Part shown: positions 21,201 to 36,608 of the stretch, in pieces | Position numbering within the stretch: the first letter of the stretch is position 1 | Layout of the letters: every line of letters starts with the position of its first letter | Assembly (NCBI GenBank): GCA_050951845.1 | Contig: JBMNJV010000001.1 | Span: 712,304 to 776,303 of the forward strand | Source: Saccharofermentanales bacterium | Lineage (GTDB): Bacteria > Bacillota > Clostridia > Saccharofermentanales > DTU023 | DNA length: 64,000 nt | Reading direction: 5' to 3' | The notes under the pieces: generated by a model | What the model saw: the letters and a program-made list of their open reading frames with translations, nothing else | Databases searched by the model: none | What the model was told of the DNA's origin: nothing | Position numbers and translations under genes: made by a program

Positions 21201-24200
21201 TCAGCGACTCGATCGTACTGGTAGCGAATGCGGCAAACAACGTCATTACCTTTACTTACAGCGAACCGCACGATGTCTGGTATAAAGTCGTCTATGAAGA
21301 TATGGACGGCAATCTTATCCGGGAAGATGCGCCCCTGAGCACACAAGCGAATCAGATTGTTGTATACGCAGATGTTGCAGGGATGCACGCACTCAATTAC
21401 CAACCTATAGTAGTACGGCAGACCAAGGTGCTTGCCGATGAAACTGACCCGAACAACTTACAAAACAATATTATCGTGTTCAAATGTTTGCCGCGTTACA
21501 CGGTTACATTTGAGGCAGGCCCGGGTGGAAGTCTGCAAGGACAAACCAGCTTCCCCAATATCCTAAAAGGCACGCCATGGGCGACAGCGGTTACAGTACC
21601 GACTCCTGTTGCAAATGAGGGTTATTATTTTGCAGGATGGACTCCTTCGTTCCCTGCGACAGTAACTGCAAACGCAACCTATACGGCAAACTTTGCACAG
21701 AAAACGGATGTTACATTTACTGCGAACAGCGAAGAAAAAACATACAACGGCCAAGTACAGACCGTAACGGGCTTCACGACCGACCTGCCTCAGGGTTATA
21801 CAGTAACCGGACTTACTGCAAATGGCAGCGGCAAAGACGTGGCTAATTATCCTGTTTCGTTCTCCGGCAATCCTATTATTAAAAATGCGGATAACCAAGA
21901 CGTAACGGAACAGTATTCGATCACATACGTCAACGGCACGCTGAAGATTAATAAACGTAATATAACAGTCAGTGTAGAGAATGCACCGGATGTTGAATAC
22001 GACGGAAACGAGCATACAGGCAAGACCGAATACACATTCAGCAATCTTGCACTCGGAACTCATGTAGCGACAATCACATACATTCCTGCAAAGGGCACGC
22101 TGGTTGGCACCTACACAGGCAGCTACGGCAACAACCTGAAAGTTATGGCCGGTGGAGTAGAGGTAACAGGTAACTACAATCTGACGACCAAGACACCCGG
22201 CACGCTGAAGATTACGGATCGTGCTGAGAAGTTTGAGATCACCGTTAAGGCGAAGAGCCTGACAGCGACTTATGACGGTACAGAAAAGAGCGTATCCGGT
22301 TTTGATACATTGACCTTTACCGTTGAAGGTAATACCTACACGGTAAGCGGCCTGACAACGAGCAATCCTTCAAGCACAAATGTTGCTACACTGCCGAACG
22401 CAATCAGCGGTACAGCGGTTGTGAAGGATGCGAACAACAATATAGTTACAGATCAGTTCACTGTAAATACTCAGAACGGCACGCTGAAGATTAATAAACG
22501 TAATATAACAGTCAGTGTAGAGAATGCACCGGATGTTGAATACGACGGAAACGAGCATACAGGCAAGACCGAATACACATTCAGCAATCTTGCACTCGGA
22601 ACTCATGTAGCGACAATCACATACATTCCTGCAAAGGGCACGCTGGTTGGCACCTACACAGGCAGCTACGGCAACAACCTGAAAGTTATGGCCGGTGGAG
22701 TAGAGGTAACAGGTAACTACAATCTGACGACCAAGACACCCGGCACGCTGAAGATTACGGATCGTGCTGAGAAGTTTGAGATCACCGTTAAGGCGAAGAG
22801 CCTGACAGCGACTTATGACGGTACAGAAAAGAGCGTATCCGGTTTTGATACATTGACCTTTACCGTTGAAGGTAATACCTACACGGTAAGCGGACTGACA
22901 ACGAGCAATCCTTCAAGCACAAATGTTGCTACACTGCCGAACGCAATCAGCGGTACAGCGGTTGTGAAGGATGCGAACAACAATATAGTTACAGATCAGT
23001 TCACTGTAAATACTCAGAACGGCACGCTGAAGATTAATAAACGTAATATAACAGTCAGTGTAGAGAATGCACCGGATGTTGAATACGACGGAAACGAGCA
23101 CACAGGCAAGACCGAATACACATTCAGCAATGTAGTTTCTGGTCAGACAGCGACCATCACGTACATCCCTGCAAAGGGCACGCTGGTTGGCACCTACACA
23201 GGCAGCTACGGCAACAACCTGAAAGTTATGGCCGGTGGAGTAGAGGTAACAGGTAACTACAATCTGACGACCAAGACACCCGGCACGCTGAAGATTACGG
23301 ATCGTGCTGAGAAGTTTGAGATCACCGTTAAGGCGAAGAGCCTGACAGCGACTTATGACGGTACAGAAAAGAGCGTATCCGGTTTTGATACATTGACCTT
23401 TACCGTTGAAGGTAATACCTACACGGTAAGCGGACTGACAACGAGCAATCCTTCAAGCACAAATGTTGCTACACTGCCGAACGCAATCAGCGGTACAGCG
23501 GTTGTGAAGGATGCGAACAACAATATAGTTACAGATCAGTTCACTGTAAATACTCAGAACGGCACGCTGAAGATTAATAAACGTAATATAACAGTCAGTG
23601 TAGAGAATGCACCGGATGTTGAATACGACGGAAACGAGCACACAGGCAAGACCGAATACACATTCAGCAATCTTGCACTCGGAACTCATGTAGCGACAAT
23701 CACATACATTCCTGCAAAGGGCACGCTGGTTGGCACCTACACAGGCAGCTACGGCAACAACCTGAAAGTTATGGCCGGTGGAGTAGAAGTAACAGATAAC
23801 TACAATCTGACGACCAAGACACCCGGCACGCTGAAGATTACGGATCGTGCTGAGAAGTTTGAGATCACCGTTAAGGCGAAGAGCCTGACAGCGACTTATG
23901 ACGGTACAGAAAAGAGCGTATCCGGTTTTGATACATTGACCTTTACCGTTGAAGGTAATACCTACACGGTAAGCGGACTGACAACGAGCAATCCTTCAAG
24001 CACAAATGTTGCTACACTGCCGAACGCAATCAGCGGTACAGCGGTTGTGAAGGATGCGAACAACAATATAGTTACAGATCAGTTCACTGTAAATACTCAG
24101 AACGGCACGCTGAAGATTAATAAACGTAATATAACAGTCAGTGTAGAGAATGCACCGGATGTTGAATACGACGGAAACGAGCACACAGGCAAGACCGAAT

Positions 24201-27200
24201 ACACATTCAGCAATGTAGTTTCTGGTCAGACAGCGACCATCACGTACATCCCTGCAAAGGGCACGCTGGTTGGCACCTACACAGGCAGCTACGGCAACAA
24301 CCTGAAAGTTATGGCCGGTGGAGTAGAGGTAACAGGTAACTACAATCTGACGACCAAGACACCCGGCACGCTGAAGATTACGGATCGTGCTGAGAAGTTT
24401 GAGATCACCGTTAAGGCGAAGAGCCTGACAGCGACTTATGACGGTACAGAAAAGAGCGTATCCGGTTTTGATACATTGACCTTTACCGTTGAAGGTAATA
24501 CCTACACGGTAAGCGGCCTGACAACGAGCAATCCTTCAAGCACAAATGTTGCTACACTGCCGAACGCAATCAGCGGTACAGCGGTTGTGAAGGATGCGAA
24601 CAACAATATAGTTACAGATCAGTTCACTGTAAATACTCAGAACGGCACGCTGAAGATTAATAAACGTAATATAACAGTCAGTGTAGAGAATGCACCGGAT
24701 GTTGAATACGACGGAAACGAGCATACAGGCAAGACCGAATACACATTCAGCAACCTTGCACTCGGAACTCATGTAGCGACAATCACATACATTCCTGCAA
24801 AGGGCACGCTGGTTGGCACCTACACAGGCAGCTACGGCAACAACCTGAAAGTTATGGCCGGTGGAGTAGAGGTAACAGGTAACTACAATCTGACGACCAA
24901 GACACCCGGCACGCTGAAGATTACGGATCGTGCTGAGAAGTTTGAGATCACCGTTAAGGCGAAGAGCCTGACAGCGACTTATGACGGTACAGAAAAGAGC
25001 GTATCCGGTTTTGATACATTGACCTTTACCGTTGAAGGTAATACCTACACGGTAAGCGGCCTGACAACGAGCAATCCTTCAAGCACAAATGTTGCTACAC
25101 TGCCGAACGCAATCAGCGGTACAGCGGTTGTGAAGGATGCGAACAACAATATAGTTACAGATCAGTTCACTGTAAATACTCAGAACGGCACGCTGAAGAT
25201 TAATAAACGTAATATAACAGTCAGTGTAGAGAATGCACCGGATGTTGAATACGACGGAAACGAGCATACAGGCAAGACCGAATACACATTCAGCAACCTT
25301 GCACTCGGAACTCATGTAGCGACAATCACATACATTCCTGCAAAGGGCACGCTGGTTGGCACCTACACAGGCAGCTACGGCAACAACCTGAAAGTTATGG
25401 CCGGTGGAGTAGAAGTAACAGATAACTACAATCTGACGACCAAGACACCCGGCACGCTGAAGATTACGGATCGTGCTGAGAAGTTTGAGATCACCGTTAA
25501 GGCGAAGAGCCTGACAGCGACTTATGACGGTACAGAAAAGAGCGTATCCGGTTTTGATACATTGACCTTTACCGTTGAAGGTAATACCTACACGGTAAGC
25601 GGCCTGACAACGAGCAATCCTTCAAGCACAAATGTTGCTACACTGCCGAACGCAATCAGCGGTACAGCGGTTGTGAAGGATGCGAACAACAATATAGTTA
25701 CAGATCAGTTCACTGTAAATACTCAGAACGGCACGCTGAAGATTAATAAACGTAATATAACAGTCAGTGTAGAGAATGCACCGGATGTTGAATACGACGG
25801 AAACGAGCATACAGGCAAGACCGAATACACATTCAGCAATCTTGCACTCGGAACTCATGTAGCGACAATCACATACATTCCTGCAAAGGGCACGCTGGTT
25901 GGCACCTACACAGGCAGCTACGGCAACAACCTGAAAGTTATGGCCGGTGGAGTAGAGGTAACAGGTAACTACAATCTGACGACCAAGACACCCGGCACGC
26001 TGAAGATTACGGATCGTGCTGAGAAGTTTGAGATCACCGTTAAGGCGAAGAGCCTGACAGCGACTTATGACGGTACAGAAAAGAGCGTATCCGGTTTTGA
26101 TACATTGACCTTTACCGTTGAAGGTAATACCTACACGGTAAGCGGCCTGACAACGAGCAATCCTTCAAGCACAAATGTTGCTACACTGCCGAACGCAATC
26201 AGCGGTACAGCGGTTGTGAAGGATGCGAACAACAATATAGTTACAGATCAGTTCACTGTAAATACTCAGAACGGCACGCTGAAGATTAATAAACGTAATA
26301 TAACAGTCAGTGTAGAGAATGCACCGGATGTTGAATACGACGGAAACGAGCATACAGGCAAGACCGAATACACATTCAGCAACCTTGCACTCGGAACTCA
26401 TGTAGCGACAATCACATACATTCCTGCAAAGGGCACGCTGGTTGGCACCTACACAGGCAGCTACGGCAACAACCTGAAAGTTATGGCCGGTGGAGTAGAA
26501 GTAACAGATAACTACAATCTGACGACCAAGACACCCGGCACGCTGAAGATTACGGATCGTGCTGAGAAGTTTGAGATCACCGTTAAGGCGAAGAGCCTGA
26601 CAGCGACTTATGACGGTACAGAAAAGAGCGTATCCGGTTTTGATACATTGACCTTTACCGTTGAAGGTAATACCTACACGGTAAGCGGCCTGACAACGAG
26701 CAATCCTTCAAGCACAAATGTTGCTACACTGCCGAACGCAATCAGCGGTACAGCGGTTGTGAAGGATGCGAACAACAATATAGTTACAGATCAGTTCACT
26801 GTAAATACTCAGAACGGCACGCTGAAGATTAATAAACGTAATATAACAGTCAGTGTAGAGAATGCACCGGATGTTGAATACGACGGAAACGAGCATACAG
26901 GCAAGACCGAATACACATTCAGCAACCTTGCACTCGGAACTCATGTAGCGACAATCACATACATTCCTGCAAAGGGCACGCTGGTTGGCACCTACACAGG
27001 CAGCTACGGCAACAACCTGAAAGTTATGGCCGGTGGAGTAGAAGTAACAGATAACTACAATCTGACGACCAAGACACCCGGCACGCTGAAGATTACGGAT
27101 CGTGCTGAGAAGTTTGAGATCACCGTTAAGGCGAAGAGCCTGACAGCGACTTATGACGGTACAGAAAAGAGCGTATCCGGTTTTGATACATTGACCTTTA

Positions 27201-29803
27201 CCGTTGAAGGTAATACCTACACGGTAAGCGGCCTGACAACGAGCAATCCTTCAAGCACAAATGTTGCTACACTGCCGAACGCAATCAGCGGTACAGCGGT
27301 TGTGAAGGATGCGAACAACAATATAGTTACAGATCAGTTCACTGTAAATACTCAGAACGGCACGCTGAAGATTAATCCTAAGGCTGTAACAATTGAGACG
27401 GGTAGTGCAACGAAGGCCTATGACGGCACCGCACTGAAGGAAGGAACAGCAAATATCGAAGGCCTGGTAGACGGAGAGAGCGTCATATTAGCCGCCACCG
27501 GCTCACAGACCGAGGTAGGTAGCAGCAGCAACACTTACAAGATTACTTGGAACAAGGCTACTGCATCGAACTACACAGTTACAGATAACCTTGGTACTCT
27601 GACCGTTACGAAGAACGCAACTGCAGTCATCATCTTAACGGCACCTTCGGATAGTAAGACCTATGACGGCACTGCCTTAACGATGACGACCGGCGTGACC
27701 GCATCCGGTTTGCCGGCAGGATTCACGATCGAAGCGACTGCAAGCGGCAGCCAGACTGAAGCCGGCAGCAGTGCAAATGTAGTTGATGACGGCTATATAA
27801 TCAAAGACCGTAACGACAACGATAAGACAGCGAACTTCACTAATGTAGTGTTAGTAGACGGCACATTGACAGTTAATCCGAAGGCAGTGACGATTACAAC
27901 AGGCAGCGCAAGCAAATCCTATGACGGCACTGCACTGACCGAAGGAACAGTGAAAATAGAAGGTCTTGTACGAGGCGAGAGCGTAACATTAGCCGCTACC
28001 GGCTCACAGACCGAAGTAGGCAGCAGCACTAACACGTATGACATTACTTGGGATAAAGCTGCTGCATCGAACTACACAGTGACGGAGAACCTTGGTACTC
28101 TGACCGTGATAGAAAACGCAGAGGCAGTCATCATATTAACGGCATCTTCAGATAGTAAGACCTATGACGGCACCGCTTTAACGATGACTGAGGGTGTGAC
28201 CGCATCCGGTTTACCTGCAGGATTCACGATCGAAGCAACTGCAAGCGGCAGCCAGACGAATGCCGGCAGCAGTGCAAACGTAGTTGACGACGGCTATATA
28301 ATTAAGGATGCCGCTGGCAACGATAAGACAGCAAACTTCAATAATGTAGTGTTGGTAGACGGCACATTGACAGTTAATCCGAAGGCAGTGACGATTACAA
28401 CAGGCAGCGCAAGCAAAGCCTATAACGGCACCGCACTGAAGGAAGCAACAGTGAGAATAGAAGGTCTCGTAGACGGAGAGAGTGTAACATTAGCCGCTAC
28501 CGGCTCACAGACCGAGGTAGGCAGCAGCAGCAACACCTACAACATTGAGTGGGATAACGCGACAGCTGCAAACTACACAGTGACAGAGAACCTTGGTACT
28601 CTGACCGTTACGGAGAACGCAGCGGCAGTCATCGTATTAACGGCAGCTTCGGGTAGCAAAACCTATGACGGCACCGCCTTAACGATGACCGAGGGTGTAA
28701 CCGCAACCGGTTTACCTGCAGGCTTCACGATCGAAGCAACTGCAAGCGGCAGCCAGACGAATGCCGGCAGCAGTGCAAACGTAGTTGACGACGGCTATGT
28801 AATTAAAGATGCCGCTGGCAACGATAAGACAGCAAACTTCAATAATGTAGTGTTGGTCGACGGCACATTGACAGTTAATCCGAAGGCAGTGACGATTACA
28901 ACAGGCAGCGCAAGCAAGACCTATGACGGCACTGCACTGACCGAAGAAACAGTGAGAATAGTAGGTCTTGTACGAGGCGAGAGCGTAACTTTAACTGCTA
29001 CCGGCTCACAGACCGAGGTAGGCAGCAGCGATAACACATATGACATTGAGTGGGATAACGCGACAGCTTCGAACTACAGAGTGACGGAGAATCTCGGAAC
29101 ACTGACCGTTACAGATGCTGGCGGAATCGGCGGACCGGACGATGAACCTACCGATCCCGAACCGGTACCTGGTCCTGTTACTCCTGTTACTCCGGGATAC
29201 ACTGATCCTGAGCCGACGCCTGAGCCGACGCCTGAGCCGACACCCGAGCCGACGCCCGAGCCGACGCCCGAGCCGACTCCTGAGCCGACGCCCGAGCCGA
29301 CACCTGAGCCGACGCCCGAGCCGACGCCCGAACCGACGCCCGAACCGACGCCCGAGCCGACTCCGGAACCGACAGTTATCATTCCGGAACGTGAGACACC
29401 GCTCGCAGACGGAACGTCAGCAGAATGGGCACTCATAAATCTGCTGTTGACCATCCTGACAGGTATTATCATGATAGTTCTGTGGATTAGTTACTTCACA
29501 AACAAAAAACGTGAAGACGAAGAGGATGAAGAGACAGAAGCTGCAAAGGCATATACCGACGAGGAAGAAGACAGAGATACAATCAAGCGTAAGGGAATCC
29601 TGAGGTTACTAAGCATCATCCCGTTTGTTGTTGCGGTAATCGTGTTCATCCTGACGGAAGACATGCGCAACCCCATGGTCTTAGTTGACCGCTGGACCAT
29701 CTGGATGGCAGTTATTGCTCTGGTACAGTTAGTACTGGCACTGTTCTGCAAGAAATCCTACGAAGAGGAAGATGATCAAGAAGATGATGCGGCAATTGCG
29801 TAA
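18293..29803 (+). CDS. Giant repeat-built cell-surface protein (3,836 aa), putative adhesin
   Basis: Sec signal peptide (cleavage near VFA-ND). Then an acidic octapeptide array, MucBP-like modules, Listeria-Bacteroides repeat modules (GYTFAGWY...TLYAKW) and YDG...GTLKI (MBG-like) modules. It ends in an EPTP linker and three C-terminal TM helices. AGGAGG RBS. Confidence 0.9.
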   Translation: MRKKNTKLFLAIILLLSFIVQMTPPAVFANDENVTESAEQAAPEGDEQAAPEDDQQAAPEDDQRAAREGDQQAAPEDDQQAAPEDDQQAAPEDDQQAAPEDDQQAAPEDDQQAAPEDDQQAAPEDDQQVAPEDDQQAAPEDDQQAAPEDDQQAAPEDDQQAAPEGDQQVTPEGDQQAAPEDDQQAAPEDDQQAAPEDDQQAAPEDDQQVAPEDDQQVAPEDDQQAEPKDDQQAEPKDDQQAEPKDDQQAEPKDDQQAAPKDDQQAEPKDDQQAEPKDDQQAAPKDDQQAEPKDDQQAEPKDDQQVRSLRSLRSPANQPKGGSPPEPAIFTITVYYQFENNDTAFPTYSGEYEEGDSYSIDVPVIDGYTATDGNDNTIVGPITGTVTGDVTMTVVYVPGDIDYTVTHHFQNTNGTYTTQSETKTGKVGEYTEAQAMSYSADQYTLEPYEQEILAAGSSINIDLYYNLNTSYLTFDSNGGSYCVRLSALYGGSVNIDDRLPVKDGYTFAGWYDNPEFSGGAVTGDVLLTGDKTLYAKWTAINSNYTIVYIIENANDNNYSYLTSRTETALTGSTVQVTAGSPLAKPNELDQTNFTFKDSSSAVVAGDGSTVITVRYSRNVYTLTSNRRLVNNQYLTLTAKYGATITDLMNSTWNAPTNYQYAWALTNNNDDKVACFDTMPSGNKKVYDFAYITSKVQTLSYWLENYDGSETITRNGVTYGLYKRITVKFNYLYYDVDFYNIAGYTKGDYTIFQGGVQRYFGSSGRYATRGNDLADFYYLANSYQLDLYGFHGVLLSSHQVKLGVNLSGYLAEPQAPVAGATFRGWFVDPSHQTQNTLTTMPTGLALYADWNFPSYTVTYVDGMDHSTTYDTQQVPYYETTDPIPTPSKDGYQFMGWYADPEYAAEFDFDQPISENKTIYAKWNKITVTSYTVRYIKESDGTNLFPPATYSGTVGRTVWANAKTSPDYIVDKISDSIVLVANAANNVITFTYSEPHDVWYKVVYEDMDGNLIREDAPLSTQANQIVVYADVAGMHALNYQPIVVRQTKVLADETDPNNLQNNIIVFKCLPRYTVTFEAGPGGSLQGQTSFPNILKGTPWATAVTVPTPVANEGYYFAGWTPSFPATVTANATYTANFAQKTDVTFTANSEEKTYNGQVQTVTGFTTDLPQGYTVTGLTANGSGKDVANYPVSFSGNPIIKNADNQDVTEQYSITYVNGTLKINKRNITVSVENAPDVEYDGNEHTGKTEYTFSNLALGTHVATITYIPAKGTLVGTYTGSYGNNLKVMAGGVEVTGNYNLTTKTPGTLKITDRAEKFEITVKAKSLTATYDGTEKSVSGFDTLTFTVEGNTYTVSGLTTSNPSSTNVATLPNAISGTAVVKDANNNIVTDQFTVNTQNGTLKINKRNITVSVENAPDVEYDGNEHTGKTEYTFSNLALGTHVATITYIPAKGTLVGTYTGSYGNNLKVMAGGVEVTGNYNLTTKTPGTLKITDRAEKFEITVKAKSLTATYDGTEKSVSGFDTLTFTVEGNTYTVSGLTTSNPSSTNVATLPNAISGTAVVKDANNNIVTDQFTVNTQNGTLKINKRNITVSVENAPDVEYDGNEHTGKTEYTFSNVVSGQTATITYIPAKGTLVGTYTGSYGNNLKVMAGGVEVTGNYNLTTKTPGTLKITDRAEKFEITVKAKSLTATYDGTEKSVSGFDTLTFTVEGNTYTVSGLTTSNPSSTNVATLPNAISGTAVVKDANNNIVTDQFTVNTQNGTLKINKRNITVSVENAPDVEYDGNEHTGKTEYTFSNLALGTHVATITYIPAKGTLVGTYTGSYGNNLKVMAGGVEVTDNYNLTTKTPGTLKITDRAEKFEITVKAKSLTATYDGTEKSVSGFDTLTFTVEGNTYTVSGLTTSNPSSTNVATLPNAISGTAVVKDANNNIVTDQFTVNTQNGTLKINKRNITVSVENAPDVEYDGNEHTGKTEYTFSNVVSGQTATITYIPAKGTLVGTYTGSYGNNLKVMAGGVEVTGNYNLTTKTPGTLKITDRAEKFEITVKAKSLTATYDGTEKSVSGFDTLTFTVEGNTYTVSGLTTSNPSSTNVATLPNAISGTAVVKDANNNIVTDQFTVNTQNGTLKINKRNITVSVENAPDVEYDGNEHTGKTEYTFSNLALGTHVATITYIPAKGTLVGTYTGSYGNNLKVMAGGVEVTGNYNLTTKTPGTLKITDRAEKFEITVKAKSLTATYDGTEKSVSGFDTLTFTVEGNTYTVSGLTTSNPSSTNVATLPNAISGTAVVKDANNNIVTDQFTVNTQNGTLKINKRNITVSVENAPDVEYDGNEHTGKTEYTFSNLALGTHVATITYIPAKGTLVGTYTGSYGNNLKVMAGGVEVTDNYNLTTKTPGTLKITDRAEKFEITVKAKSLTATYDGTEKSVSGFDTLTFTVEGNTYTVSGLTTSNPSSTNVATLPNAISGTAVVKDANNNIVTDQFTVNTQNGTLKINKRNITVSVENAPDVEYDGNEHTGKTEYTFSNLALGTHVATITYIPAKGTLVGTYTGSYGNNLKVMAGGVEVTGNYNLTTKTPGTLKITDRAEKFEITVKAKSLTATYDGTEKSVSGFDTLTFTVEGNTYTVSGLTTSNPSSTNVATLPNAISGTAVVKDANNNIVTDQFTVNTQNGTLKINKRNITVSVENAPDVEYDGNEHTGKTEYTFSNLALGTHVATITYIPAKGTLVGTYTGSYGNNLKVMAGGVEVTDNYNLTTKTPGTLKITDRAEKFEITVKAKSLTATYDGTEKSVSGFDTLTFTVEGNTYTVSGLTTSNPSSTNVATLPNAISGTAVVKDANNNIVTDQFTVNTQNGTLKINKRNITVSVENAPDVEYDGNEHTGKTEYTFSNLALGTHVATITYIPAKGTLVGTYTGSYGNNLKVMAGGVEVTDNYNLTTKTPGTLKITDRAEKFEITVKAKSLTATYDGTEKSVSGFDTLTFTVEGNTYTVSGLTTSNPSSTNVATLPNAISGTAVVKDANNNIVTDQFTVNTQNGTLKINPKAVTIETGSATKAYDGTALKEGTANIEGLVDGESVILAATGSQTEVGSSSNTYKITWNKATASNYTVTDNLGTLTVTKNATAVIILTAPSDSKTYDGTALTMTTGVTASGLPAGFTIEATASGSQTEAGSSANVVDDGYIIKDRNDNDKTANFTNVVLVDGTLTVNPKAVTITTGSASKSYDGTALTEGTVKIEGLVRGESVTLAATGSQTEVGSSTNTYDITWDKAAASNYTVTENLGTLTVIENAEAVIILTASSDSKTYDGTALTMTEGVTASGLPAGFTIEATASGSQTNAGSSANVVDDGYIIKDAAGNDKTANFNNVVLVDGTLTVNPKAVTITTGSASKAYNGTALKEATVRIEGLVDGESVTLAATGSQTEVGSSSNTYNIEWDNATAANYTVTENLGTLTVTENAAAVIVLTAASGSKTYDGTALTMTEGVTATGLPAGFTIEATASGSQTNAGSSANVVDDGYVIKDAAGNDKTANFNNVVLVDGTLTVNPKAVTITTGSASKTYDGTALTEETVRIVGLVRGESVTLTATGSQTEVGSSDNTYDIEWDNATASNYRVTENLGTLTVTDAGGIGGPDDEPTDPEPVPGPVTPVTPGYTDPEPTPEPTPEPTPEPTPEPTPEPTPEPTPEPTPEPTPEPTPEPTPEPTPEPTPEPTVIIPERETPLADGTSAEWALINLLLTILTGIIMIVLWISYFTNKKREDEEDEETEAAKAYTDEEEDRDTIKRKGILRLLSIIPFVVAVIVFILTEDMRNPMVLVDRWTIWMAVIALVQLVLALFCKKSYEEEDDQEDDAAIA
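18408..19206 (+). repeat. 24-bp (8-aa) tandem repeat x ~33 in the giant gene (AAPEDDQQ, switching to AEPKDDQQ)
   Basis: The period was read directly. From about 18960 the units change from GCACCGGAAGAT to GAACCGAAAGAT. Confidence 0.95.
21950..27373 (+). repeat. Near-identical 543/540-bp (181/180-aa) tandem repeat x 10
   Basis: NKRNITVSVENAP recurs 10 times. Eight units are 543 bp and two are 540 bp, and 21950 + 5424 = 27374. Each unit holds two YDG...GTLKI modules. Confidence 0.95.
27374..29115 (+). repeat. Diverged 501-bp (167-aa) tandem repeat x ~3.5
   Basis: NPKAVTI starts at 27374, 27875, 28376 and 28877. The units are clearly related but carry many substitutions. Confidence 0.9.
29210..29374 (+). 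repeat. 12-bp repeat encoding (EPTP) x ~14, a Pro/Thr stalk
   Basis: GAGCCGACGCCT units read directly. Confidence 0.95.
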
Positions 29804-29826
29804 ACAACGCTTGCTGAACTAAAAAA

Positions 29827-29857
29827 AAGAGTCCGCTCAGGCGGGCTCTTTTTTTTG
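29827..29857. terminator. Bidirectional rho-independent terminator between the convergent giant gene and the PilT-like gene
   Basis: An A-run, then stem AAGAGTCCGC (29827-29836) and GCGGGCTCTT (29841-29850) with a TCAG loop, then a T-run. Confidence 0.8.
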
Positions 29858-29937
29858 TTGCAGTACATCCGACCTGCTCACTTTTTGGCGTCGTGCAAAT
29901 GGGAATTTGCAGAGCTCGAAATTCTGAGCAGAAACCT

Positions 29938-30999
29938 TTAACTGTTTTCAATCTGTCTCAGAAGATATTCCTGAGACATGCTGTAGGTAAGGGCAGTTTG
30001 TTTGCTGATAAGCCCTTCCCGATACAATTTTGCAAGACTGGCATCCATACTGATCATTCCTTCTGCGGACGAAGTTTGAAGAACGGAAGGGATCTGGTGT
30101 GTTCTGCCGTCGCGAATCAACGTTCGGATCGCACCGTTACACTGCATAACCTCGAATGCCGGCACAAGTGAACCGTCATTCGCGGGCAGCAATTGCTGAC
30201 TGACTACAGCCTGAAGCACCATGGAGATCTGCATGCGCACCTGTTCCTGCTGTTCTGCGGGATATGCATCAACCAACCGGTCAACGGCATTGGCTGCTCC
30301 CAGGGCATGAAGCGCGGCAAGAATTAAATGCCCCGTCTCTGCCGCGGTCAGGGCAATTTCGATCGCCTCCATGTCCCGCAGTTCTCCGATCAGGATAACG
30401 TCCGGACTTTGCCGCAATGCAGCGCGTAGGGCGGACGGATAATTCTCCGTATCAATCATCAGCTCGCGCTGGCTGACGATACTTTTTTTGTGGCTAAGCA
30501 GATATTCAATCGGATCTTCCAGCGTGATGATGTGTGCGTTACGCTGTTGATTGATCTTTTCCAGCAGACAAGTCAGCGTTGTCGTTTTTCCGCTACCCGA
30601 AGGACCGGTGACGAGAATCATCCCTCTTCTCAGCTCTGCCAGATCCAAAACAGTGCTTGGCAGGCGCATTTCCTCCGGATCAGGCAGAGAGAATGCAACT
30701 ACCCGGATTACTGCTGCATACGATCCGCGCTGCTTATACGCGTTTACACGGAAACGAGATACTCCTTTTATAGCAAATGAAAAATCATCATCTCCTCGCT
30801 TCAAGAAGTTTTCCGGATCACGCCCCGCTAAGGCATATACCTCAAGGAGCATCTCTTGCGTCTGCGCAGGAGTCAGTTTTTCCTCTCCCCAGTTTTTAAC
30901 AAGTTTATTTTGCTTGCAGCTGACCGGACGGCCGGATATGATAAAAATATCCTCTACATTCTGTTCCACCATGTCCTTTAACAACATCTGTATGTCCAT
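29938..30999 (-). CDS. PilT-type hexameric ATPase (T2SS/T4P family), the only motor ATPase in the cluster
   Basis: Walker A GPSGSGKTT, Walker B DVILIGELRD, His box GHLILAALHA and the PilT-type motif AIRTLIRDGRTHQI. ATG 30999 (MDIQMLL) follows GAGGGAG. The track start at 31116 would overlap the upstream gene. Confidence 0.85.
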   Translation of the reverse strand: MDIQMLLKDMVEQNVEDIFIISGRPVSCKQNKLVKNWGEEKLTPAQTQEMLLEVYALAGRDPENFLKRGDDDFSFAIKGVSRFRVNAYKQRGSYAAVIRVVAFSLPDPEEMRLPSTVLDLAELRRGMILVTGPSGSGKTTTLTCLLEKINQQRNAHIITLEDPIEYLLSHKKSIVSQRELMIDTENYPSALRAALRQSPDVILIGELRDMEAIEIALTAAETGHLILAALHALGAANAVDRLVDAYPAEQQEQVRMQISMVLQAVVSQQLLPANDGSLVPAFEVMQCNGAIRTLIRDGRTHQIPSVLQTSSAEGMISMDASLAKLYREGLISKQTALTYSMSQEYLLRQIENS

Positions 31000-31024
31000 T
31001 GTTTTTTGCTCCCTCTGTATTCCT

Positions 31025-31435
31025 TTATTGTCCCGGCGATATGGTTTGGCGATACAGCCGCTCCACTTTACCCTGTTCTCCGATGCCAACCTCCGCACGT
31101 AGCACCCGCAGGTCATCTATAGGTGTATCAAAAACCACTACAGTCCCCGGATAGGAAGTATCAACCGAAATCCCAAATCCGGCTTCCTCCAAACGCTCCC
31201 ATAAGGGTGTTTCTGTGTCACTTGCCGCTATGGCAGACAGTTCCGACAACCTCTGTTCCGCGCGTGCCTCTGCGGCATAATAATCGGATACGGCACATGC
31301 GGCCCTATCCGAAAGTACGCTATCCGACCGGCTGCCGGACAGCGACAAGACGGAAAAAACGGCGAGCAGCAATATCGTAAACACGGTAATCAGCGAAACA
31401 ATACCTATACTGACAACGGGCCTTCCTCGCTTCAT
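31025..31435 (-). CDS. Small N-terminally anchored protein (136 aa), minor-pseudopilin/PilX-N-like
   Basis: MKRGRPVVSIGIVSLITVFTILLLAVFSVLSLS, then a soluble domain. Its ATG overlaps the upstream stop as ATGA. Confidence 0.55.
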   Translation of the reverse strand: MKRGRPVVSIGIVSLITVFTILLLAVFSVLSLSGSRSDSVLSDRAACAVSDYYAAEARAEQRLSELSAIAASDTETPLWERLEEAGFGISVDTSYPGTVVVFDTPIDDLRVLRAEVGIGEQGKVERLYRQTISPGQ

Positions 31436-31905
31436 ATTATCCCTCCGCTCTTTGCGCCGAGAAAGCGCAGCACGCACAATGTATAAATAATCTCTTCTTT
31501 ATTTGTCACTGAAATATCTGCTTGAAGCATATTTTTCTCATCAATATCAATAACCGCACGCAATTCATAGACTGCCTCCGCGCCATCTCGGCTATCGGGT
31601 CCATCGGGGCTATCCGCGCCGGCGGGAAGACGCAGCCAATCTGCATCGTATCGGAGGGTATATACGCCCCCTTCTCCTTCTGCGTCCAGCAGGGTGCCAA
31701 GCACCTGCAGGTCTCCCTCGGCAGCCTTCACACTCTCTGCTACGTTTTGTGCTTCCGCAACTGCCATGGAAAGGGCAGCGCTCTTTTTCCCCGTCAGATT
31801 TCCGTGCGCAAAAATGGCAATACAAATTGCCGACGCAACGGCAAACAACAAGCAGTTCACCAGCAACTCCACCAGAAAATAGCGGCTTTTAGACGATTGA
31901 CTCAT
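31432..31905 (-). CDS. Pilin-like protein (157 aa) with a non-canonical leader
   Basis: The N-terminus MSQSSKSRYFLVELLVNCLLFAVASAI matches the class III helix consensus (FTLIELLV) including Glu5. It has Arg, not Gly, at -1. Confidence 0.6.
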   Translation of the reverse strand: MSQSSKSRYFLVELLVNCLLFAVASAICIAIFAHGNLTGKKSAALSMAVAEAQNVAESVKAAEGDLQVLGTLLDAEGEGGVYTLRYDADWLRLPAGADSPDGPDSRDGAEAVYELRAVIDIDEKNMLQADISVTNKEEIIYTLCVLRFLGAKSGGII

Positions 31906-32396
31906 GGTGCATTTCTCCTTCCGGCTCTCTCCAAAAAAACCTTGCCGTCATACGTTTCACCTGACAGGTCCGTCACGCTGATTCGGAGCAGACCCTCCGG
32001 ACCCAGCTCGAGAACGAGCGAGGAGAGGGGCATAATCTTCTGCCCGATCCCCGGTGAGACATCCGCACCCTGCAGCAGCAGTACCTCGCGCAGATATCCG
32101 TCCTCCACGTAAATCCACGTTTCATACTGTTCACTCTCTATTAACATTCCCAGCACCAGTGCATCTCCCTCGCCGGTTTGCCGCACGCTTATTTCTCCCG
32201 CTGCACTTGTTGTTTGCCGTACCTTTTCCGTCAAATACAACACGGAAGTCCGCATATTATAATTGCGTTCCGAACGTTCCGCTCCCCGGCTATAAGCATC
32301 TGCAACCATCACAGAGAGGAGCAGGGTACAAATCGTGTACAAGAAAAACAAAGCAATCACAAATAAGATCTCTGCTGTATCTCTCTCCCGCCGCAT
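31902..32396 (-). CDS. Small N-terminally anchored protein (164 aa) of the T4P/T2SS-like operon
   Basis: MRRERDTAEILFVIALFFLYTICTLLLSVMVA, then a soluble domain. The internal ATG 32396 was chosen because the track start at 32561 overlaps the upstream gene by about 150 nt. Its stop overlaps the next start. Confidence 0.5.
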   Translation of the reverse strand: MRRERDTAEILFVIALFFLYTICTLLLSVMVADAYSRGAERSERNYNMRTSVLYLTEKVRQTTSAAGEISVRQTGEGDALVLGMLIESEQYETWIYVEDGYLREVLLLQGADVSPGIGQKIMPLSSLVLELGPEGLLRISVTDLSGETYDGKVFLERAGRRNAP

Positions 32397-32412
32397 CTTC
32401 TCTTTCTGCCCC

Positions 32413-32769
32413 CTAATCTTCAAGATAAAAAACCGAAATTTCCGGTAGCAGATTGCCGCCCAGGAATTTGTAATGCACCACATAGCGATCTGCATCATAG
32501 CGAAGACCGTAACGCTCCTGTAAGTACGCAAGATCTTGCGGGTAACTTCCTTCCAATGCATAACACTGTACGGCCTCCCGCCGCACAGCGTCTTTCAGCA
32601 GAACGATCTGCCTGGAGACGGATGTTTTTCCGGCGGCAGTAACCCCTGATCCAATACTCAGCGCAACGGCGGCAAAGATCGCGACAGCCCAGAAAACACC
32701 GCTGCCCAGCAATTGCCTGATCTTTTTCGCGAACCCGGTTTTTCGCAAGGAAACACCAACCTTTCTCAC
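32413..32769 (-). CDS. Small single-TM protein (~118 aa) of the T4P/T2SS-like operon
   Basis: A GTG at 32769 overlaps the GspF stop as GTGA. TM helix GVFWAVAIFAAVALSIGSG. The start is uncertain (the track ATG at 32835 would overlap gspF by 70 nt). Confidence 0.45.
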   Translation of the reverse strand: MRKVGVSLRKTGFAKKIRQLLGSGVFWAVAIFAAVALSIGSGVTAAGKTSVSRQIVLLKDAVRREAVQCYALEGSYPQDLAYLQERYGLRYDADRYVVHYKFLGGNLLPEISVFYLED

Positions 32770-33815
32770 ATGCCGCTCAGGATTCCGGCCAACGGCAACA
32801 TGACAGATAGGATGACCAGCCCCACCAGTACGCACAGCAATGCTACCAGCGCAGGCTCAATAATTGCCAGCAACCGCTGCCGCCGCGACTCAGCATCACG
32901 GCGGCAGCGAAGTGCAACTTCCATAAGCATCGTTCCGGGTGTGCCTGTGCGCAAGCCTGCCACTATCATCCCGTTATAGGATTCTTCAAAAATTCCGGAA
33001 GCGAAAATAGCCTCTTGCAAAGGTTTCCCTTCTCCAAGCAGGCGCTCGAGTTCAACAATTCGCGCCTTTGCCCTTTCGCTTTCTTCAAGGTCCGCCGCTA
33101 AATGCAGCGCATCCACTATATAAATGCCGCTTTCCAGCATCAGCGACATGGAAAATGCGAACCGTTCCGCAGCGATAACCGCTGCCACCTTCCGTGTGAG
33201 CGGGGAAGTATCATAAGCGCGCAAAAGCGCAACCCGGCCTTTTTTTGTAAAACGCAGGAGAAAAAATACGAGAACAACGGCAATGACCACGATCAGAATG
33301 ACCACCGCAGATTGACCAAAAGCCTGTCCGAATTGCAGCAGCGACAGAGAAAAAGGGTTCATTGCCAGTCCCAGTTGCTTGAACACTTGTTCAAATACCG
33401 GCATTACCGCCACGGTCAGTACAAAAATCACCACGAGCACCATTCCCGTCATAGTAAGCGGGTAGACCACCGAAGTTCGCAGTTCTCTTGCCAGGGCATC
33501 GCGCCCTTTGTAATACGCATGCAGTGCCTCTGCGATTTCTTGCATACGTCCCGTGCGTTCGCCTATCCGCACCATATCCACGGCATAACCGGGAAACCGC
33601 CCGCTTTGCAGGAAAGCGGCAGACAGACTGTTCCCGTCCGCAACTTCCGCGGATAGCCCGCGAAACAATTCGCTATTTCTTGCACCCGTTTCTTCACCTA
33701 ACAGCGCAAGTCCTTCCCATGCGGGAATTCCGCTTTTGAAAAACAGCGCCAACTGTTGGAAAAACTCCTCCAGCTCAGCTGCGGAAAGTTCTTTTTGCTT
33801 GTTGGTTCGTTTCAT
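32766..33815 (-). CDS. Type II secretion system F / PilC-family platform protein
   Basis: Two T2SSF-like halves, each a helical cytoplasmic domain followed by TM segments. ATG 33815 follows AAGGAG; the track TTG start is at 33842. Confidence 0.85.
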   Translation of the reverse strand: MKRTNKQKELSAAELEEFFQQLALFFKSGIPAWEGLALLGEETGARNSELFRGLSAEVADGNSLSAAFLQSGRFPGYAVDMVRIGERTGRMQEIAEALHAYYKGRDALARELRTSVVYPLTMTGMVLVVIFVLTVAVMPVFEQVFKQLGLAMNPFSLSLLQFGQAFGQSAVVILIVVIAVVLVFFLLRFTKKGRVALLRAYDTSPLTRKVAAVIAAERFAFSMSLMLESGIYIVDALHLAADLEESERAKARIVELERLLGEGKPLQEAIFASGIFEESYNGMIVAGLRTGTPGTMLMEVALRCRRDAESRRQRLLAIIEPALVALLCVLVGLVILSVMLPLAGILSGM

Positions 33816-33838
33816 GCGCTTCTCCTTCTGAGCGGATT

Positions 33839-34765
33839 TCAATAATAAAATAATGCATTATAATTGCTGCCGTCTCCAATATAATCTGAAAGACCTTGTC
33901 CCGCGGCGAAAGTAGGATCCATCAATACCCAGTTTTTTCCGTCAAAGTGAATAATACCGTCAATCCATCCGGTTTCTTCCGTGTAGACGCTGATCCACGC
34001 ATGATAAACCTTGCCTGCATACCCGATGACCAAGCGGGCAGGAATTCGCTGAACACGCAACATAGCCGTCATCAGTGCAGCATAATCAAAACAGATGCCG
34101 CGCTTTGTGTGCAGAGTATCATCTAAATCGGGTAAATAAGACGAAGATACATTTTCTGCCTTATCTAAATCGTAGACGATATTATTGACCACATAGTCAT
34201 AAATACGCTTTACCACGTCCAAATCATCCGATGCGCCCTGTGCAAGCACTTCGCTATATGCTACCGCTGCGGTTTCTTCCGTATAGTCAACGTATTGGCT
34301 GGGATGCAAAAAAGGTGTGAATTCATTTTTCAGACGCACATCAAACGATGCGCCGTCTACAAACGCATATTGCTCACCTGAAATGTTGCGGTAAATATTC
34401 AGCGTATAATGCCCGTCCCCGCAAGTCAGAGGAAATGTCTGGAATGCGCCGCTTGTCGGCAGGTCATAGGTATAGGGCTCCTGATCATCGTGTGTAAGCT
34501 GCATCTTGATCCGGCCGTCGCCAGTATATTTTACCATGACATATCCGTCTTCAAGATGCGAGGCGTCGATCAGAGAGGCTGTTCCTTCAAAAACCTGCGT
34601 TCCGTCTGCTCGAGGCACCAGCACTACCGGGCGGCTATCTCGGGAAGCTCCTTCCGCCACTGACACTTTTGCCTTTTTTTCTTCCGCACATCCCGCTGTC
34701 CAGACAATAATGAGAACAAGCATTGTCACGAATGTTCGCCGAACAATGTCCAATTTTTTCTTCAA
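33839..34765 (-). CDS. Transglutaminase-like (Cys-His-Asp) lipoprotein
   Basis: Lipobox VWTAGC. The transglutaminase core is RGICFDYAAL (Cys), VYHAWISVY (His) and VLMDPT (Asp). TTG start with GGAGGG 5 nt upstream. Confidence 0.75.
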   Translation of the reverse strand: MKKKLDIVRRTFVTMLVLIIVWTAGCAEEKKAKVSVAEGASRDSRPVVLVPRADGTQVFEGTASLIDASHLEDGYVMVKYTGDGRIKMQLTHDDQEPYTYDLPTSGAFQTFPLTCGDGHYTLNIYRNISGEQYAFVDGASFDVRLKNEFTPFLHPSQYVDYTEETAAVAYSEVLAQGASDDLDVVKRIYDYVVNNIVYDLDKAENVSSSYLPDLDDTLHTKRGICFDYAALMTAMLRVQRIPARLVIGYAGKVYHAWISVYTEETGWIDGIIHFDGKNWVLMDPTFAAGQGLSDYIGDGSNYNALFYY

Positions 34766-34907
34766 AAACGCCCTCCTGTCCTCCGCCGGCAGCAGCCATC
34801 ACCGAAATTCTTCCCTAATTATTCATAAGCAGACACAAAAAAAAAAGAGAGAGCACACAAATGATAAGTCTACTCTTTCCCATTTCGCCTCTCTTTCCGG
34901 ACTAAGA

Positions 34908-36110
34908 TCAATCGTCCACAACCAGTGGTGTCACACTGTAACTAAAGATATATTTTGCGTTTTTACTATTGCTGTAAAAGAGCCTTTTTAACCGTTCCAC
35001 TACCATACGACCCATTTTTGCATTTGGCACGGAAGGCAGTAATATCACATATTGTAAGGGACTGTAACGGGAAATCGTATCTCCCTGACGCAAGTTCTCT
35101 TGCAGCAGATCCAGTGTCCGAGCCATCACTTGCTTCAATTCCAGTGCTTCCATCTGTCTGTTGTCCATCCTGTGCACGTCTACCAATGCCAAAAACATAG
35201 ACGTATCCAGCCGCTTCAGATTACGCATCTGCAAATGATAGATATCGTTGAAGATAGCGTATTCACACACAAACGCACCTGCCTCCGGTCTGCCGTTCCG
35301 CAGTTCTTCACAGATTTCTTCAATCTCTGCCTCCGAGCTTTTTTCACCTTTTATCAATTCTTTATAGAAATTTAAAATCTCGTCCGAGGGTTTCAACCCC
35401 AAATGCGTGTATTGCAGGTTTGTCGTATTCTGATATTGTTCCAACGCCTCTTTATTCTTACCGGTATTGAGCAGCGCGGACATCAGTTCCAAATTCAGGA
35501 CGGAATAGAAAGCATCAATATCCAGTGCAATTTTACATACGCGGATTACGTCACCATACTCTTTTTCTTTATTCAGCAATTCGATGTAACGATAGACTGT
35601 TTTCAGGTAAAGATCGTGGTAATATACGCTTTTGGGTGTAATCCATTTGCTCAGGCTGGAATTTGTCAGCAGATCATCTGTATATAGTTGGAGAAGTTCT
35701 TCAAATTGATCCCTCACATCAGGATCAAGAGATTCCGCATCGGATAAGGTATTGCAAAGATCCTCCATACGAAAAACGTCTATCTTAGCCGGAAGGTCGG
35801 GGTTCCACATATAGCCGCCCGGTATCGTCACAATCGCCCCGGGGAGCCCGTTTTCTTCCAGATCCTTACGCAATCGGCTGATCAGCGTTTTGAGTGCGTT
35901 CTCCGCATTGATTTCTTCATCTTCTCCCCAGATCATTTCCGCCAACCGCGATACGGACATGGGTCTTTGCCTGTTGAGGATCAGGATTTCGAGCAAAGCC
36001 GTTTTTTTCTTAGAGGACCAGATGGTCTGAGAAATATCCACGTCATCCACCAGTATTCGCAATTCGCCAAAAACATTGATCTCCAAGTTTTTCATTCTAT
36101 CACTATCCAT
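34908..36110 (-). CDS. SARP-type regulator: OmpR-like winged helix, BTAD, and a degenerate GGDEF-like C-terminal domain
   Basis: The N-terminus (LEINVFGELRILVDD...LLEILILNRQRPMSVSRLAEMIWG...LISRLRKDL) has the SARP pattern. A helical BTAD-like middle follows. The C-terminus has a GGDEF-fold pattern with RYSPLQYVILLP in place of RYGGDEF. Start is 36110 or 36095. Confidence 0.65.
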   Translation of the reverse strand: MDSDRMKNLEINVFGELRILVDDVDISQTIWSSKKKTALLEILILNRQRPMSVSRLAEMIWGEDEEINAENALKTLISRLRKDLEENGLPGAIVTIPGGYMWNPDLPAKIDVFRMEDLCNTLSDAESLDPDVRDQFEELLQLYTDDLLTNSSLSKWITPKSVYYHDLYLKTVYRYIELLNKEKEYGDVIRVCKIALDIDAFYSVLNLELMSALLNTGKNKEALEQYQNTTNLQYTHLGLKPSDEILNFYKELIKGEKSSEAEIEEICEELRNGRPEAGAFVCEYAIFNDIYHLQMRNLKRLDTSMFLALVDVHRMDNRQMEALELKQVMARTLDLLQENLRQGDTISRYSPLQYVILLPSVPNAKMGRMVVERLKRLFYSNSKNAKYIFSYSVTPLVVDD

Positions 36111-36331
36111 CCGATCAAATTTCCTGTCGCATAACCCATGCGGACTTTCAGCGATGCTTGCCTTTCGTTCTATCACTTTATTCTAGTTATTTTATGCGTA
36201 TAATTATACTGGATTTGTACACCTTTATCAACTTTCCGACTTGTTGAAGTGAAGGAATAACCGCTTGAATAAAGGATTAATCATCTTCAATTAATATAGA
36301 AATGATTATATTATGATATTACTCTCAGGCA

Positions 36332-36378
36332 CATTTTTAAAATATGGATTCGCTGTATTGTTATCTTTAATAATACTT
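36332..36378 (+). promoter_or_regulatory. Copy A of a shared ~46-nt intergenic element (core ATTCGCTGTATTGT)
   Basis: CATTTTTAAAATATGGATTCGCTGTATTGTTATCTTTAATAATACTT aligns by eye with 40037-40081 with only a few mismatches or gaps. Confidence 0.5.
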
Positions 36379-36429
36379 GTTTTTATTATATAAAACAACT
36401 TTAATAATACTTGTTTTTATTATATAAAA
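36365..36429. repeat. 31-bp direct repeat x 2 (period 34)
   Basis: CTTTAATAATACTTGTTTTTATTATATAAAA at 36365-36395 and 36399-36429. Confidence 0.9.
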
Positions 36430-36608
36430 TATATTTATGTAAAGAATTTATGTGTTTGTTTAAATCAGGTGAGTTGTCAAATTGAAAGTTTCTGATAAGC
36501 AAACAAAAGATCAGTAAGAGTTCTCAACTAATATACCGGGATAACAATACTATTGCTTAAGATTTATCGGGGATCCTGATACCGGAGAGAGGAAGTGAAT
36601 AAATCTCT

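Follow-up and report, generated by a model that had tools for sequence, protein, structure and literature searches.

An assembly ATPase, a prepilin peptidase, and cleavable pilins are the defining parts of type IV filament machines. Their priming or tip complexes, GspH-I-J-K and FimU-PilVWX, are made up of four pilin-like proteins, one of which lacks the Glu at position 5 of the mature pilin (Glu+5), and prepilins that stay uncleaved are not extracted into fibres. In the Lap system of Pseudomonas, a giant adhesin (LapA) is found with a transglutaminase-like cysteine protease (LapG) and a degenerate GGDEF-EAL receptor (LapD) for cyclic di-GMP (c-di-GMP). The core of type IV filament systems has been described as an AAA+ ATPase, an inner-membrane platform, a prepilin peptidase, and pilins (PMC6668835). 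In the present study, we analyzed 64,000 nucleotides of contig JBMNJV010000001.1 from a Saccharofermentanales bacterium (hereafter, the window), in which a gene cassette encodes a transglutaminase-fold lipoprotein, a platform protein, four small membrane proteins (s1-s4), and a PilT-type ATPase, with the gene for a SARP-type regulator ahead of it. The cassette has two of the four core features locally, the ATPase and the platform. It is very probably a distinct and conserved cassette of Clostridia that derives from type IV filament machines, and it is undescribed though widespread.

The eight genes are co-directional on the minus strand between positions 29938 and 36110, as read from the sequence, and are listed here in the order of transcription:

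34908..36110, minus strand: SARP-type regulator with an OmpR-type winged helix, a BTAD domain, and a C-terminal degenerate GGDEF domain (Pfam, family profile)
33839..34765, minus strand: transglutaminase-fold lipoprotein, the first cassette gene (Pfam Transglut_core, E = 6.4e-23)
32766..33815, minus strand: PilC/GspF-type inner-membrane platform of 349 residues with two T2SSF repeats (Pfam T2SSF, E = 8.2e-36)
32413..32769, minus strand: s1, an N-in bitopic protein of 118 residues with the motif AVQCYALEGSYP (conserved; no Pfam or NCBIfam match)
31902..32396, minus strand: s2, a DUF4860 protein of 164 residues with a minor-pseudopilin-like fold (PF16152, E = 1.1e-21; AlphaFold2 model)
31432..31905, minus strand: s3, a degenerate type IV pilin of 157 residues (Glu+5 and a profile match to solved pilins)
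31025..31435, minus strand: s4, an N-in bitopic protein of 136 residues, possibly a GspK/PilX-type pilin without Glu+5 (conserved in most loci)
29938..30999, minus strand: PilT/PilU-family hexameric ATPase of 353 residues (TIGR01420)

The same eight genes were obtained by an independent gene call on identical metagenome contigs, with all lengths matching on one of them (L002; related loci are cited by such numbers below). The sequence and this gene call confirmed the eight genes and their order as proposed in an earlier interpretation made from the letters alone (the sequence-only reading), and the four-nucleotide junction overlaps that it had quoted are all present, as GTGA at 32766-32769 and as ATGA at 31902-31905 and 31432-31435. 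The junction of the transglutaminase and gspF genes is a gap of 23 nucleotides with no overlap. The coupled stop and start codons fit a stoichiometric complex, and the earlier view of a compact, translationally coupled unit resembling type IV filament operons was thereby supported. Chance or decaying genes were ruled out as an explanation by the intact frames, the coupled starts, and the gene order kept over 56 loci.

These 56 loci comprise the window and 55 loci from a scan of one genome per species, which was searched by tblastn with the eight window proteins, and the neighborhoods of the related loci were covered over 10 kb on either side. The survey of gene order in other Clostridia that the sequence-only reading had suggested showed that the order recurs: transglutaminase, GspF, s1, DUF4860, s3, s4, and PilT follow one another in nearly all of the loci. 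Of the seven core genes, the full set was detected in 37 loci and six genes in another 13, and the incomplete loci mostly reflect contig ends or divergence of s3 and s4. The hosts include isolates (Christensenella hongkongensis HKU16 and Anaerovorax odorimutans) and metagenome-assembled genomes (MAGs) of Oscillospiraceae, Lachnospiraceae, Saccharofermentanales, and Fermentithermobacillaceae, as well as unclassified Bacillota. Across the loci, the identity of DUF4860 to the window protein falls to 26-36%. At the 36% level, Christensenella tenuis carries genes for a transglutaminase, a T2SSF protein, a protein of 116 residues, DUF4860, proteins of 127 and 155 residues, a T2SSE protein, and a BTAD regulator, with no giant gene nearby. 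The order is altered in the most distant loci: the transglutaminase gene of L056-L059 has moved to a position downstream of the ATPase gene, and in L060 the ATPase gene precedes that of the platform.

Beyond these loci, the DUF4860 profile matched 3,041 representative clusters (50% identity) at E <= 1e-3 and 2,184 at E <= 1e-10, and a further member taken from this list again lies behind transglutaminase and T2SSF genes. In the source records, the products have generic names (PilT/PilU family type 4a pilus ATPase, type II secretion system F family protein, and DUF4860 domain-containing protein) or are called hypothetical. In the literature, we found no mention of DUF4860 and, under related topics, no description of such a cassette. 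Additionally, typical or near-identical cassettes occur in MAGs labelled as Bacteroidales, Anaerolineaceae, Bacteroides, or Coriobacteriales (L008, L012, L019-L023, and others). These labels look like binning or labelling errors and not like real hosts; horizontal transfer is also possible.

The ATPase belongs to the PilT/PilU family, as it scored 402.5 bits against TIGR01420 (cut-off 319.1) and matched PF00437 at E = 7.9e-43. In a search of PDB sequences, its residues 4-350 aligned over the full length to the PilT structure of Aquifex (E = 6e-91), whereas PilB, GspE, and PilF matched only in the nucleotide-binding core (E of about 1e-24). The score was below the cut-offs for ComGA (130.9 vs 300 bits), GspE (127.2 vs 630), PilB (122 vs 676), and the TadA-family model TIGR03819 (50.6 vs 373). 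The platform matched PF00482 (T2SSF) in two stretches with E = 8.2e-36, and fell under the equivalog cut-offs of GspF (166.9 vs 424 bits), ComGB (120.2 vs 240), and PilC. With the motif AIRTLIRDG, of the AIRNLIRE type, the only motor of the cassette is indeed of the PilT type, as had been read from an AIRxLIRxG motif. PilT operating without PilB is unusual, though not absurd given the MSHA and Tad precedents. According to one report, PilT promotes extension of the MSHA pilus besides its retraction (PMC9815625), and Tad systems with the single ATPase CpaF extend and retract (discussed in PMC6668835).

In the window, no second T2SSE or T2SSF protein, Peptidase_A24, PilMNO protein, or canonical prepilin was found by Pfam, six-frame phmmer, or a regular expression for class III signals; the Pfam scan covered gene-like open reading frames (ORFs) of at least 120 residues, without short ones nested inside others. 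No match to GspG or a secretin was obtained in the window, and none to the Pfam families Flp and TadE among the cassette proteins. Around the 55 related loci, a second ATPase or platform was in no case encoded within the 10-kb flanks, and Peptidase_A24, T2SSE, and N_methyl were not among the 25 families with the most matches in 150 neighboring ORFs (28 lineages). The local lack of a PilB/GspE-type ATPase, a prepilin peptidase, and PilMNO noted earlier was therefore confirmed for the 64-kb window. The term orphan used by the sequence-only reading is supported at the scale of the window and of the flanks of the related loci.

Could the cassette be a divergent DNA-uptake pseudopilus of the ComG kind? 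Such systems likewise consist of a compact Firmicute operon for a single short ATPase, a single platform, and a number of small pilin-like proteins, and the most distant relative (L060) places the ATPase gene first, as in comG operons. However, the ATPase and the platform miss the ComGA and ComGB cut-offs given above, and the ATPase passes the PilT/PilU model instead; the small proteins have no match to the ComGC-GG models at E <= 0.1. The usual gene order is reversed relative to comG, the subunits lack cleavable signals, a transglutaminase and a SARP regulator are not parts of known com operons, and no comE or comF gene lies nearby. A Com-type DNA-uptake machine is thus very improbable. Membership in ComG, the type II secretion system (T2SS), or Tad was ruled out by the curated cut-offs, and in the profile check for comG, pil, tad, and gsp orthology the cassette failed all of those cut-offs.

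Each of the small proteins has a basic N-terminus followed by one hydrophobic helix. The s3 protein begins with MSQSSKSR/YFLVELLV (the slash marks the border of leader and mature pilin), in which Glu+5 is retained and Arg stands in place of Gly(-1). In the alignment of its family, a short basic leader is followed by x-F-L-[VI]-E-[LI]-[LIV] with an invariant Leu-x-Glu. The s3 profile matched the N-terminal helices of solved type IV pilins; the best named match was Geopilin (E = 1.2e-3), and most of the 20 matches among PDB sequences were pilins, including PilA, PilE, and MshA. Profile position 10 aligns with residue 1 of the mature pilin, so that the invariant Glu falls at +5. Arg occupies position -1 in 28 of 46 sequences, followed by Lys (10), Asn (four), Gly (one), and Ala (one). 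By these matches, s3 is a pilin-derived protein that has lost Gly(-1).

The class III signal (Gly or Ala at -1 and Glu+5) is absent from the window and present in deep-branching orthologues. N_methyl (PF07963), which matched none of the window's own small proteins in the Pfam and NCBIfam scans, is passed by the s3 orthologue of L059 (MKRKKG/FSLVEILL, 31.2 vs 21.2 bits). In L060, the leaders are MRKKSKG/FTIYE for s3, MEKG/SSTLE for DUF4860, and MKNNKG/VSTIL(VV) for s4. Because these deep-branching orthologues keep the canonical motif, the family is, judged by its leaders, descended from a machine with ordinary prepilins, and the clade of the window has lost the peptidase site and kept Glu+5. 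The absence of a leader with Gly(-1) and Phe(+1), stated by the sequence-only reading, was borne out within the window.

The s2 protein looks like a minor pseudopilin, although the structural scores are modest. Its AlphaFold2 model (predicted local distance difference test, pLDDT, 86.7) has an N-terminal helix (residues 2-63) followed by an eight-stranded sheet, that is, the lollipop shape of pilins. The top Foldseek match was the type IV-like pilin TTHA1219 of Thermus (E = 2.6e-3, probability 1.0); XcpW/GspJ, a minor pseudopilin of the T2SS, was also matched, with a modest TMq of 0.44. The model of s1 (pLDDT 81.8) is a smaller lollipop with a helix at residues 24-73, a short helix, and two strands; its pilin matches in Foldseek were non-significant, and the s1 profile had no significant match among PDB sequences. 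As neither sequence nor structure gave a significant match, s1 was not retained as a pilin proper and is called pilin-shaped here. It is the most conserved of the four, has the conserved motif given above, and is kept in all loci. No Pfam or NCBIfam family was matched by s1, s3, or s4. The four families were linked only weakly by hhalign (best probability 63%), too weakly to claim them as paralogues. Hence, of the four small one-helix proteins described earlier, the topology stands, and they are no longer anonymous, since s3 is a degenerate pilin and DUF4860 has a minor-pseudopilin fold.

With a PilT-family ATPase, a PilC-type platform, and four small pilin-like proteins encoded together in the manner of a priming or tip complex, whose make-up they match, the cassette is similar to parts of the type IVa pilus, and its non-pilin partner parallels PilY1 by position only. 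A rival explanation is that it serves an ordinary type IVa pilus as an accessory module, with pilB, pilD, and the major pilin gene elsewhere in the genome, PilT as the retraction motor, and s1-s4 as minor pilins or a tip. The ATPase is a bona fide PilT-family member. Minor-pilin operons and pilT often lie apart from pilB, pilC, and pilD. According to one study, type IV pili are almost universal in Clostridia (10.1101/2024.11.04.621531), and a second pil operon is present in many of the Gram-positive bacteria that carry pilT (PMC3244431). Nevertheless, we consider this explanation unlikely. The cassette has its own platform protein, and no pil gene was found within 10 kb in the 55 loci. With Arg or Lys in place of Gly or Ala at position -1 of s3, PilD should not process it. 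Unlike the locus of a type IVa pilus, that of the cassette has no PilB, PilD, PilMNO, or major pilin, its partner is a transglutaminase-fold lipoprotein, and a SARP-GGDEF regulator takes the place of PilSR/Chp control; the tight co-conservation with the transglutaminase and the SARP regulator is foreign to known pil loci.

Likewise, we regard as improbable a Gram-positive machine like the T2SS, in which a true short pseudopilus would push folded cargo (the transglutaminase, the giant adhesin encoded next to the cassette, or other proteins) through the peptidoglycan, with the PilT-type ATPase as an assembly or bidirectional motor. The T2SS core is also built from a platform, an ATPase, and pilin-like proteins. 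The four small proteins are comparable to minor pseudopilins, with the DUF4860 model similar to XcpW/GspJ and s4 devoid of Glu+5 as is GspK, and the idea of a piston is shared. Pilin-dependent secretion has been reported in C. perfringens (10.1101/2024.11.04.621531), and systems in which one ATPase both extends and retracts are known (Tad/CpaF, PMC6668835). Among the 150 neighboring ORFs, Flg_new/MBG surface proteins were the commonest recurring neighbors, tied with components of energy-coupling factor (ECF) transporters (four of the 28 lineages each). On the other hand, there is no candidate for a major pseudopilin with a cleavable signal, and subunits with uncleaved leaders should not be extractable from the membrane. 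Both the transglutaminase and the giant protein bear ordinary lipoprotein or Sec signals, and an adhesin is adjacent in a minority of lineages only. The cassette further differs from the T2SS in its PilT-type ATPase, in the lack of a GspG-like subunit, GspC/L/M, and a secretin, and in failing the equivalog cut-offs. Its hosts are presumably monoderm, unlike the bearers of the T2SS.

The non-pilin partner of the filament-type proteins is the transglutaminase-fold lipoprotein. Its gene starts with TTG behind a GGAGG, and the signal peptide ends with WTAGC. The protein scored 81.5 bits against PF01841 (cut-off 23), and its triad of Cys225, His255, and Asp283 is invariant in 47 homologues, most of which have a lipobox Cys and the rest a signal peptide. 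The nearest solved relatives are 3isr, a putative cysteine protease (3.7e-11), and 6g49, a protein-glutamine gamma-glutamyltransferase. At E <= 0.1, the Pfam matches were PF01841, PF04473, and PF13471 only, and the LapG family was not among them. The protein is thus an active-looking extracytoplasmic enzyme of the papain/transglutaminase clan, to judge from its intact triad and export signal. Its gene is part of the cassette in nearly all loci, and in four of them (L019, L022, L037, and L040) two tandem paralogues, with 38-46% and 52-59% identity to the window protein, precede the platform gene. The sequence-only reading had identified the lipoprotein correctly and placed it merely upstream; it proved to be a conserved member of the cassette. 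As a substitute for the prepilin peptidase it was excluded by topology, with the enzyme being an extracytoplasmic lipoprotein and the leaders being cytoplasmic.

The regulator is a SARP-family protein with Pfam matches to Trans_reg_C (1.7e-12; 47.7 vs 26.2 bits) and BTAD (1.1e-10; 42.5 vs 22.1 bits) and a weak match to GGDEF. Its family profile matched AfsR and EmbR structures over the DNA-binding and BTAD parts (4.5e-18), and over residues 292-381 it matched many solved GGDEF domains (E = 1.4e-8). The catalytic GG[DE]EF motif has been lost, being RYSPLQY in the window and RYS.xQ[YF] in 24 of 24 aligned homologues. Five residues before the former motif, at the position of the I-site, lies an RxGD (RQGD-TISRY-SPLQY in the window), in which R and D are invariant and G is nearly so in the 24 homologues. 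A degenerate GGDEF domain with RxxD is the signature of domains that bind c-di-GMP. The regulator may therefore sense c-di-GMP, and proteins of this build may be a type of c-di-GMP-responsive transcription factor of their own. For this architecture (RxGD kept and GGDEF lost, in the C-terminal third encoded at 34908-35230), no description was found in the literature.

The SARP gene adjoins the cassette in 29 of the 56 loci. It lies upstream, either on the same strand or in divergent orientation (in which case it is sometimes duplicated), or else follows the ATPase gene. The SARP regulator said to precede the operon is thus present, as a frequent partner only. In one locus (L061:2761-4528), genes for a GGDEF protein, an extracytoplasmic function (ECF) sigma factor, and a protein of 164 residues lie directly before the transglutaminase gene in the place of the SARP gene. 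The window has an ECF sigma factor with a partner of 392 residues at 38176-39911, and no further locus shares this. As for c-di-GMP, the connection suggested earlier is independently supported by the degenerate GGDEF and RxGD of the regulator, not by the neighboring cyclase genes, which are not kept among the loci.

Prepilin peptidases cut behind a Gly or Ala residue (PMC3244431). Because cleavage requires these residues and uncleaved prepilins are not pulled out into fibres, s1-s4 are expected to stay in the membrane as a stub. We tentatively propose that the cassette encodes a pseudopilus stub that forms no filament, requires no prepilin peptidase, is driven by PilT, and acts with a surface transglutaminase, a reading that we find plausible while recognizing that it may well be wrong. 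The pilin-like subunits without Gly(-1) would not be cut by a prepilin peptidase and would build no long fibre; instead, they would form a short, membrane-anchored stub on the platform, similar to a tip complex, which the PilT-type motor would drive up and down. At the outer side of the membrane, this motion might position, activate, or release the transglutaminase-fold enzyme, which would cleave or cross-link surface proteins or the cell wall. In this genome, a possible substrate is the neighboring giant adhesin, held by its C-terminal membrane segments, and expression would probably follow c-di-GMP via the SARP-GGDEF regulator. By analogy, the cassette would come closest in its mode of action to a tip complex of minor pilins that is driven by PilT.

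Several points speak against this stub model. Its steps, including a stub in place of a fibre, the direction of the motor, the substrate of the enzyme, and the binding of c-di-GMP, are inferred from sequences and models. A PilB, a PilD, and a major pilin from elsewhere in the genome may work with the cassette, a different protease could remove the leaders, and to our knowledge a complex of unprocessed pilins driven by PilT has no characterized precedent. The best structural match of DUF4860 has a TM-score of only 0.35-0.44, and s1 and s4 are pilin-like in topology or shape only. Ten loci with flanks of 3 kb or more on either side have no SARP gene beside the cassette, and an RxxD motif alone is no proof of c-di-GMP binding. 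Finally, the giant adhesin is absent beside the cassette in most lineages.

In its context in the window, the cassette resembles the release of Lap adhesins, by analogy and without being a member of that system. The likeness is hypothetical and concerns function only: a giant adhesin, an enzyme with a Cys-His-Asp triad, a degenerate GGDEF domain with RxxD, and genes for c-di-GMP turnover occur together. In contrast to Lap, the enzyme belongs to PF01841 and not to LapG, the degenerate GGDEF domain is carried by a DNA-binding SARP instead of a membrane receptor, a type I secretion system is lacking, the adhesin is a non-conserved neighbor, and the pilus-type motor has no Lap counterpart. A bolder view would see in the cassette a new class of type IV filament machine, free of peptidase and fibre and with PilT only, that serves Clostridia as a c-di-GMP-controlled surface device and as a functional counterpart of Lap in Gram-positive bacteria. 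In this device, four uncleaved pilin relics would pass mechanical work across the membrane to the transglutaminase-fold enzyme, and surface adhesins or cell wall would be cut, cross-linked, or released. We think it rather doubtful that this view is correct.

The interest of the cassette lies in what it retains and what it lacks. Represented by thousands of sequence clusters and found in gut genera such as Christensenella, it has kept a PilT motor, a platform, and four pilin-like or pilin-shaped proteins and has recruited an enzyme of the transglutaminase fold, and both the assembly ATPase and the site for the peptidase have been dropped. If the stub model is true, pilus hardware has been repurposed as a device other than a fibre, and the cassette is a natural test of a PilT-type motor working alone; if it is only an accessory module of an ordinary pilus, the interest is modest. 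The cassette also provides a first functional context for DUF4860 and three unannotated protein families, and the SARP with a degenerate GGDEF domain is flagged as a candidate c-di-GMP-responsive transcription factor in Firmicutes.

Three further features flank the cassette:

36203..36231, minus strand: promoter-like site TTGATA-17-TATAAT, 5' of the SARP gene (11 of 12 consensus positions)
29821..29858, no strand assigned: hairpin between A and T runs, aaaaaaaAAGAGCCCGCctgaGCGGACTCTTtttttt, located between the ATPase gene and the giant gene that converges on it (visible in the sequence itself)
18293..29803, plus strand: giant surface protein of 3,836 residues (Pfam)

In a consensus scan, the promoter-like site was the best of its region, and it is sigma-70-like and strong by consensus alone. 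The same scan found no promoter-like or terminator-like site in the gap of 140 nucleotides from the SARP gene to the transglutaminase gene. The hairpin is probably a bidirectional terminator, given its A and T runs between convergent genes; it was absent from the scan output, and one stem mismatch is the probable cause. SARPs bind direct repeats, and an AT-rich repeat of 34 nucleotides occurs in two tandem copies (94% identical) in the intergenic region 5' of the SARP gene (36365-36432).

The giant protein, which is encoded tail-to-tail with the cassette, has a signal peptide, acidic repeats, a linker rich in Pro and Thr, and C-terminal transmembrane segments, and Pfam detected Flg_new, MucBP, and YDG/MBG_2 repeats. 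Near the N-terminus, about 40 copies of the acidic seven-residue repeat APEDDQQ were observed, and there are about a dozen near-identical repeats of about 170 residues, a PEPT-rich linker, and hydrophobic end segments rather than an LPXTG motif. Metagenome assemblies break within this gene, with L001 and L002 ending in its repeats. Homologues are adjacent to the cassette in the close clade, L053, and L021, and another Flg_new/MBG_2 protein follows the ATPase in L028; no comparable giant protein was found within 10 kb in most other lineages. The giant protein may be a client of the cassette and is not a member of the conserved set, so the link to the adhesin drawn in the sequence-only reading turned out to be weak, and its proposal of a piston that serves this adhesin is speculative. 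The immediate context that it described, with the 3,836-residue gene tail-to-tail and four c-di-GMP genes nearby, was correct.

The giant gene and the cassette (18000-36200) have a G+C content of 0.46-0.52 vs 0.36-0.40 in the genome. In close relatives (77-94% protein identity), the block is present from the C-terminus of the adhesin to the SARP gene, and lower-GC sequence also lies upstream of the SARP gene in L006, L007, L008, and L012. In L007, the SARP side abuts sequence matching window positions 310-2990 (the feoB region) and 63478-64000, which is a different context. These results suggest that the block moved as a unit by transfer or rearrangement. The larger ORFs of the window, as scanned with Pfam, revealed no integrase or transposase domain.

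Besides the SARP gene, no neighbor proved to be generally conserved among the candidates considered, namely the ECF sigma factor, a polysaccharide deacetylase, GGDEF/EAL proteins, and the giant adhesin: the ECF link is restricted to L061, the deacetylase to two Christensenella loci, and the GGDEF/EAL genes are sporadic. In the window, two GGDEF genes and two genes for proteins with seven transmembrane segments (7TM) and GAF, GGDEF, and EAL domains lie upstream of the giant gene at 7.8-17.4 kb. The latter are convergent paralogues of about 1,035 residues at 10849-13968 (plus strand) and 14321-17416 (minus strand) with the architecture 7TM (HisKA_7TM)-GGDEF-EAL, in which GAF was detected in the first only, and the two shorter GGDEF genes are at 7859-10544. 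The deacetylase, which has a long acidic N-terminal region, is encoded beside the cassette at 36609-37964; its homologues at L046:9988-10950 and L047:9201-10178 (E of about 1e-46 to 1e-48) are about 2 kb downstream of the ATPase gene, past the SARP gene. Additionally, the genes for a BlaI-type repressor (Penicillinase_R) and an M56 sensor peptidase of the BlaR1 type form a pair at 41858-43821 that is unrelated to the cassette.

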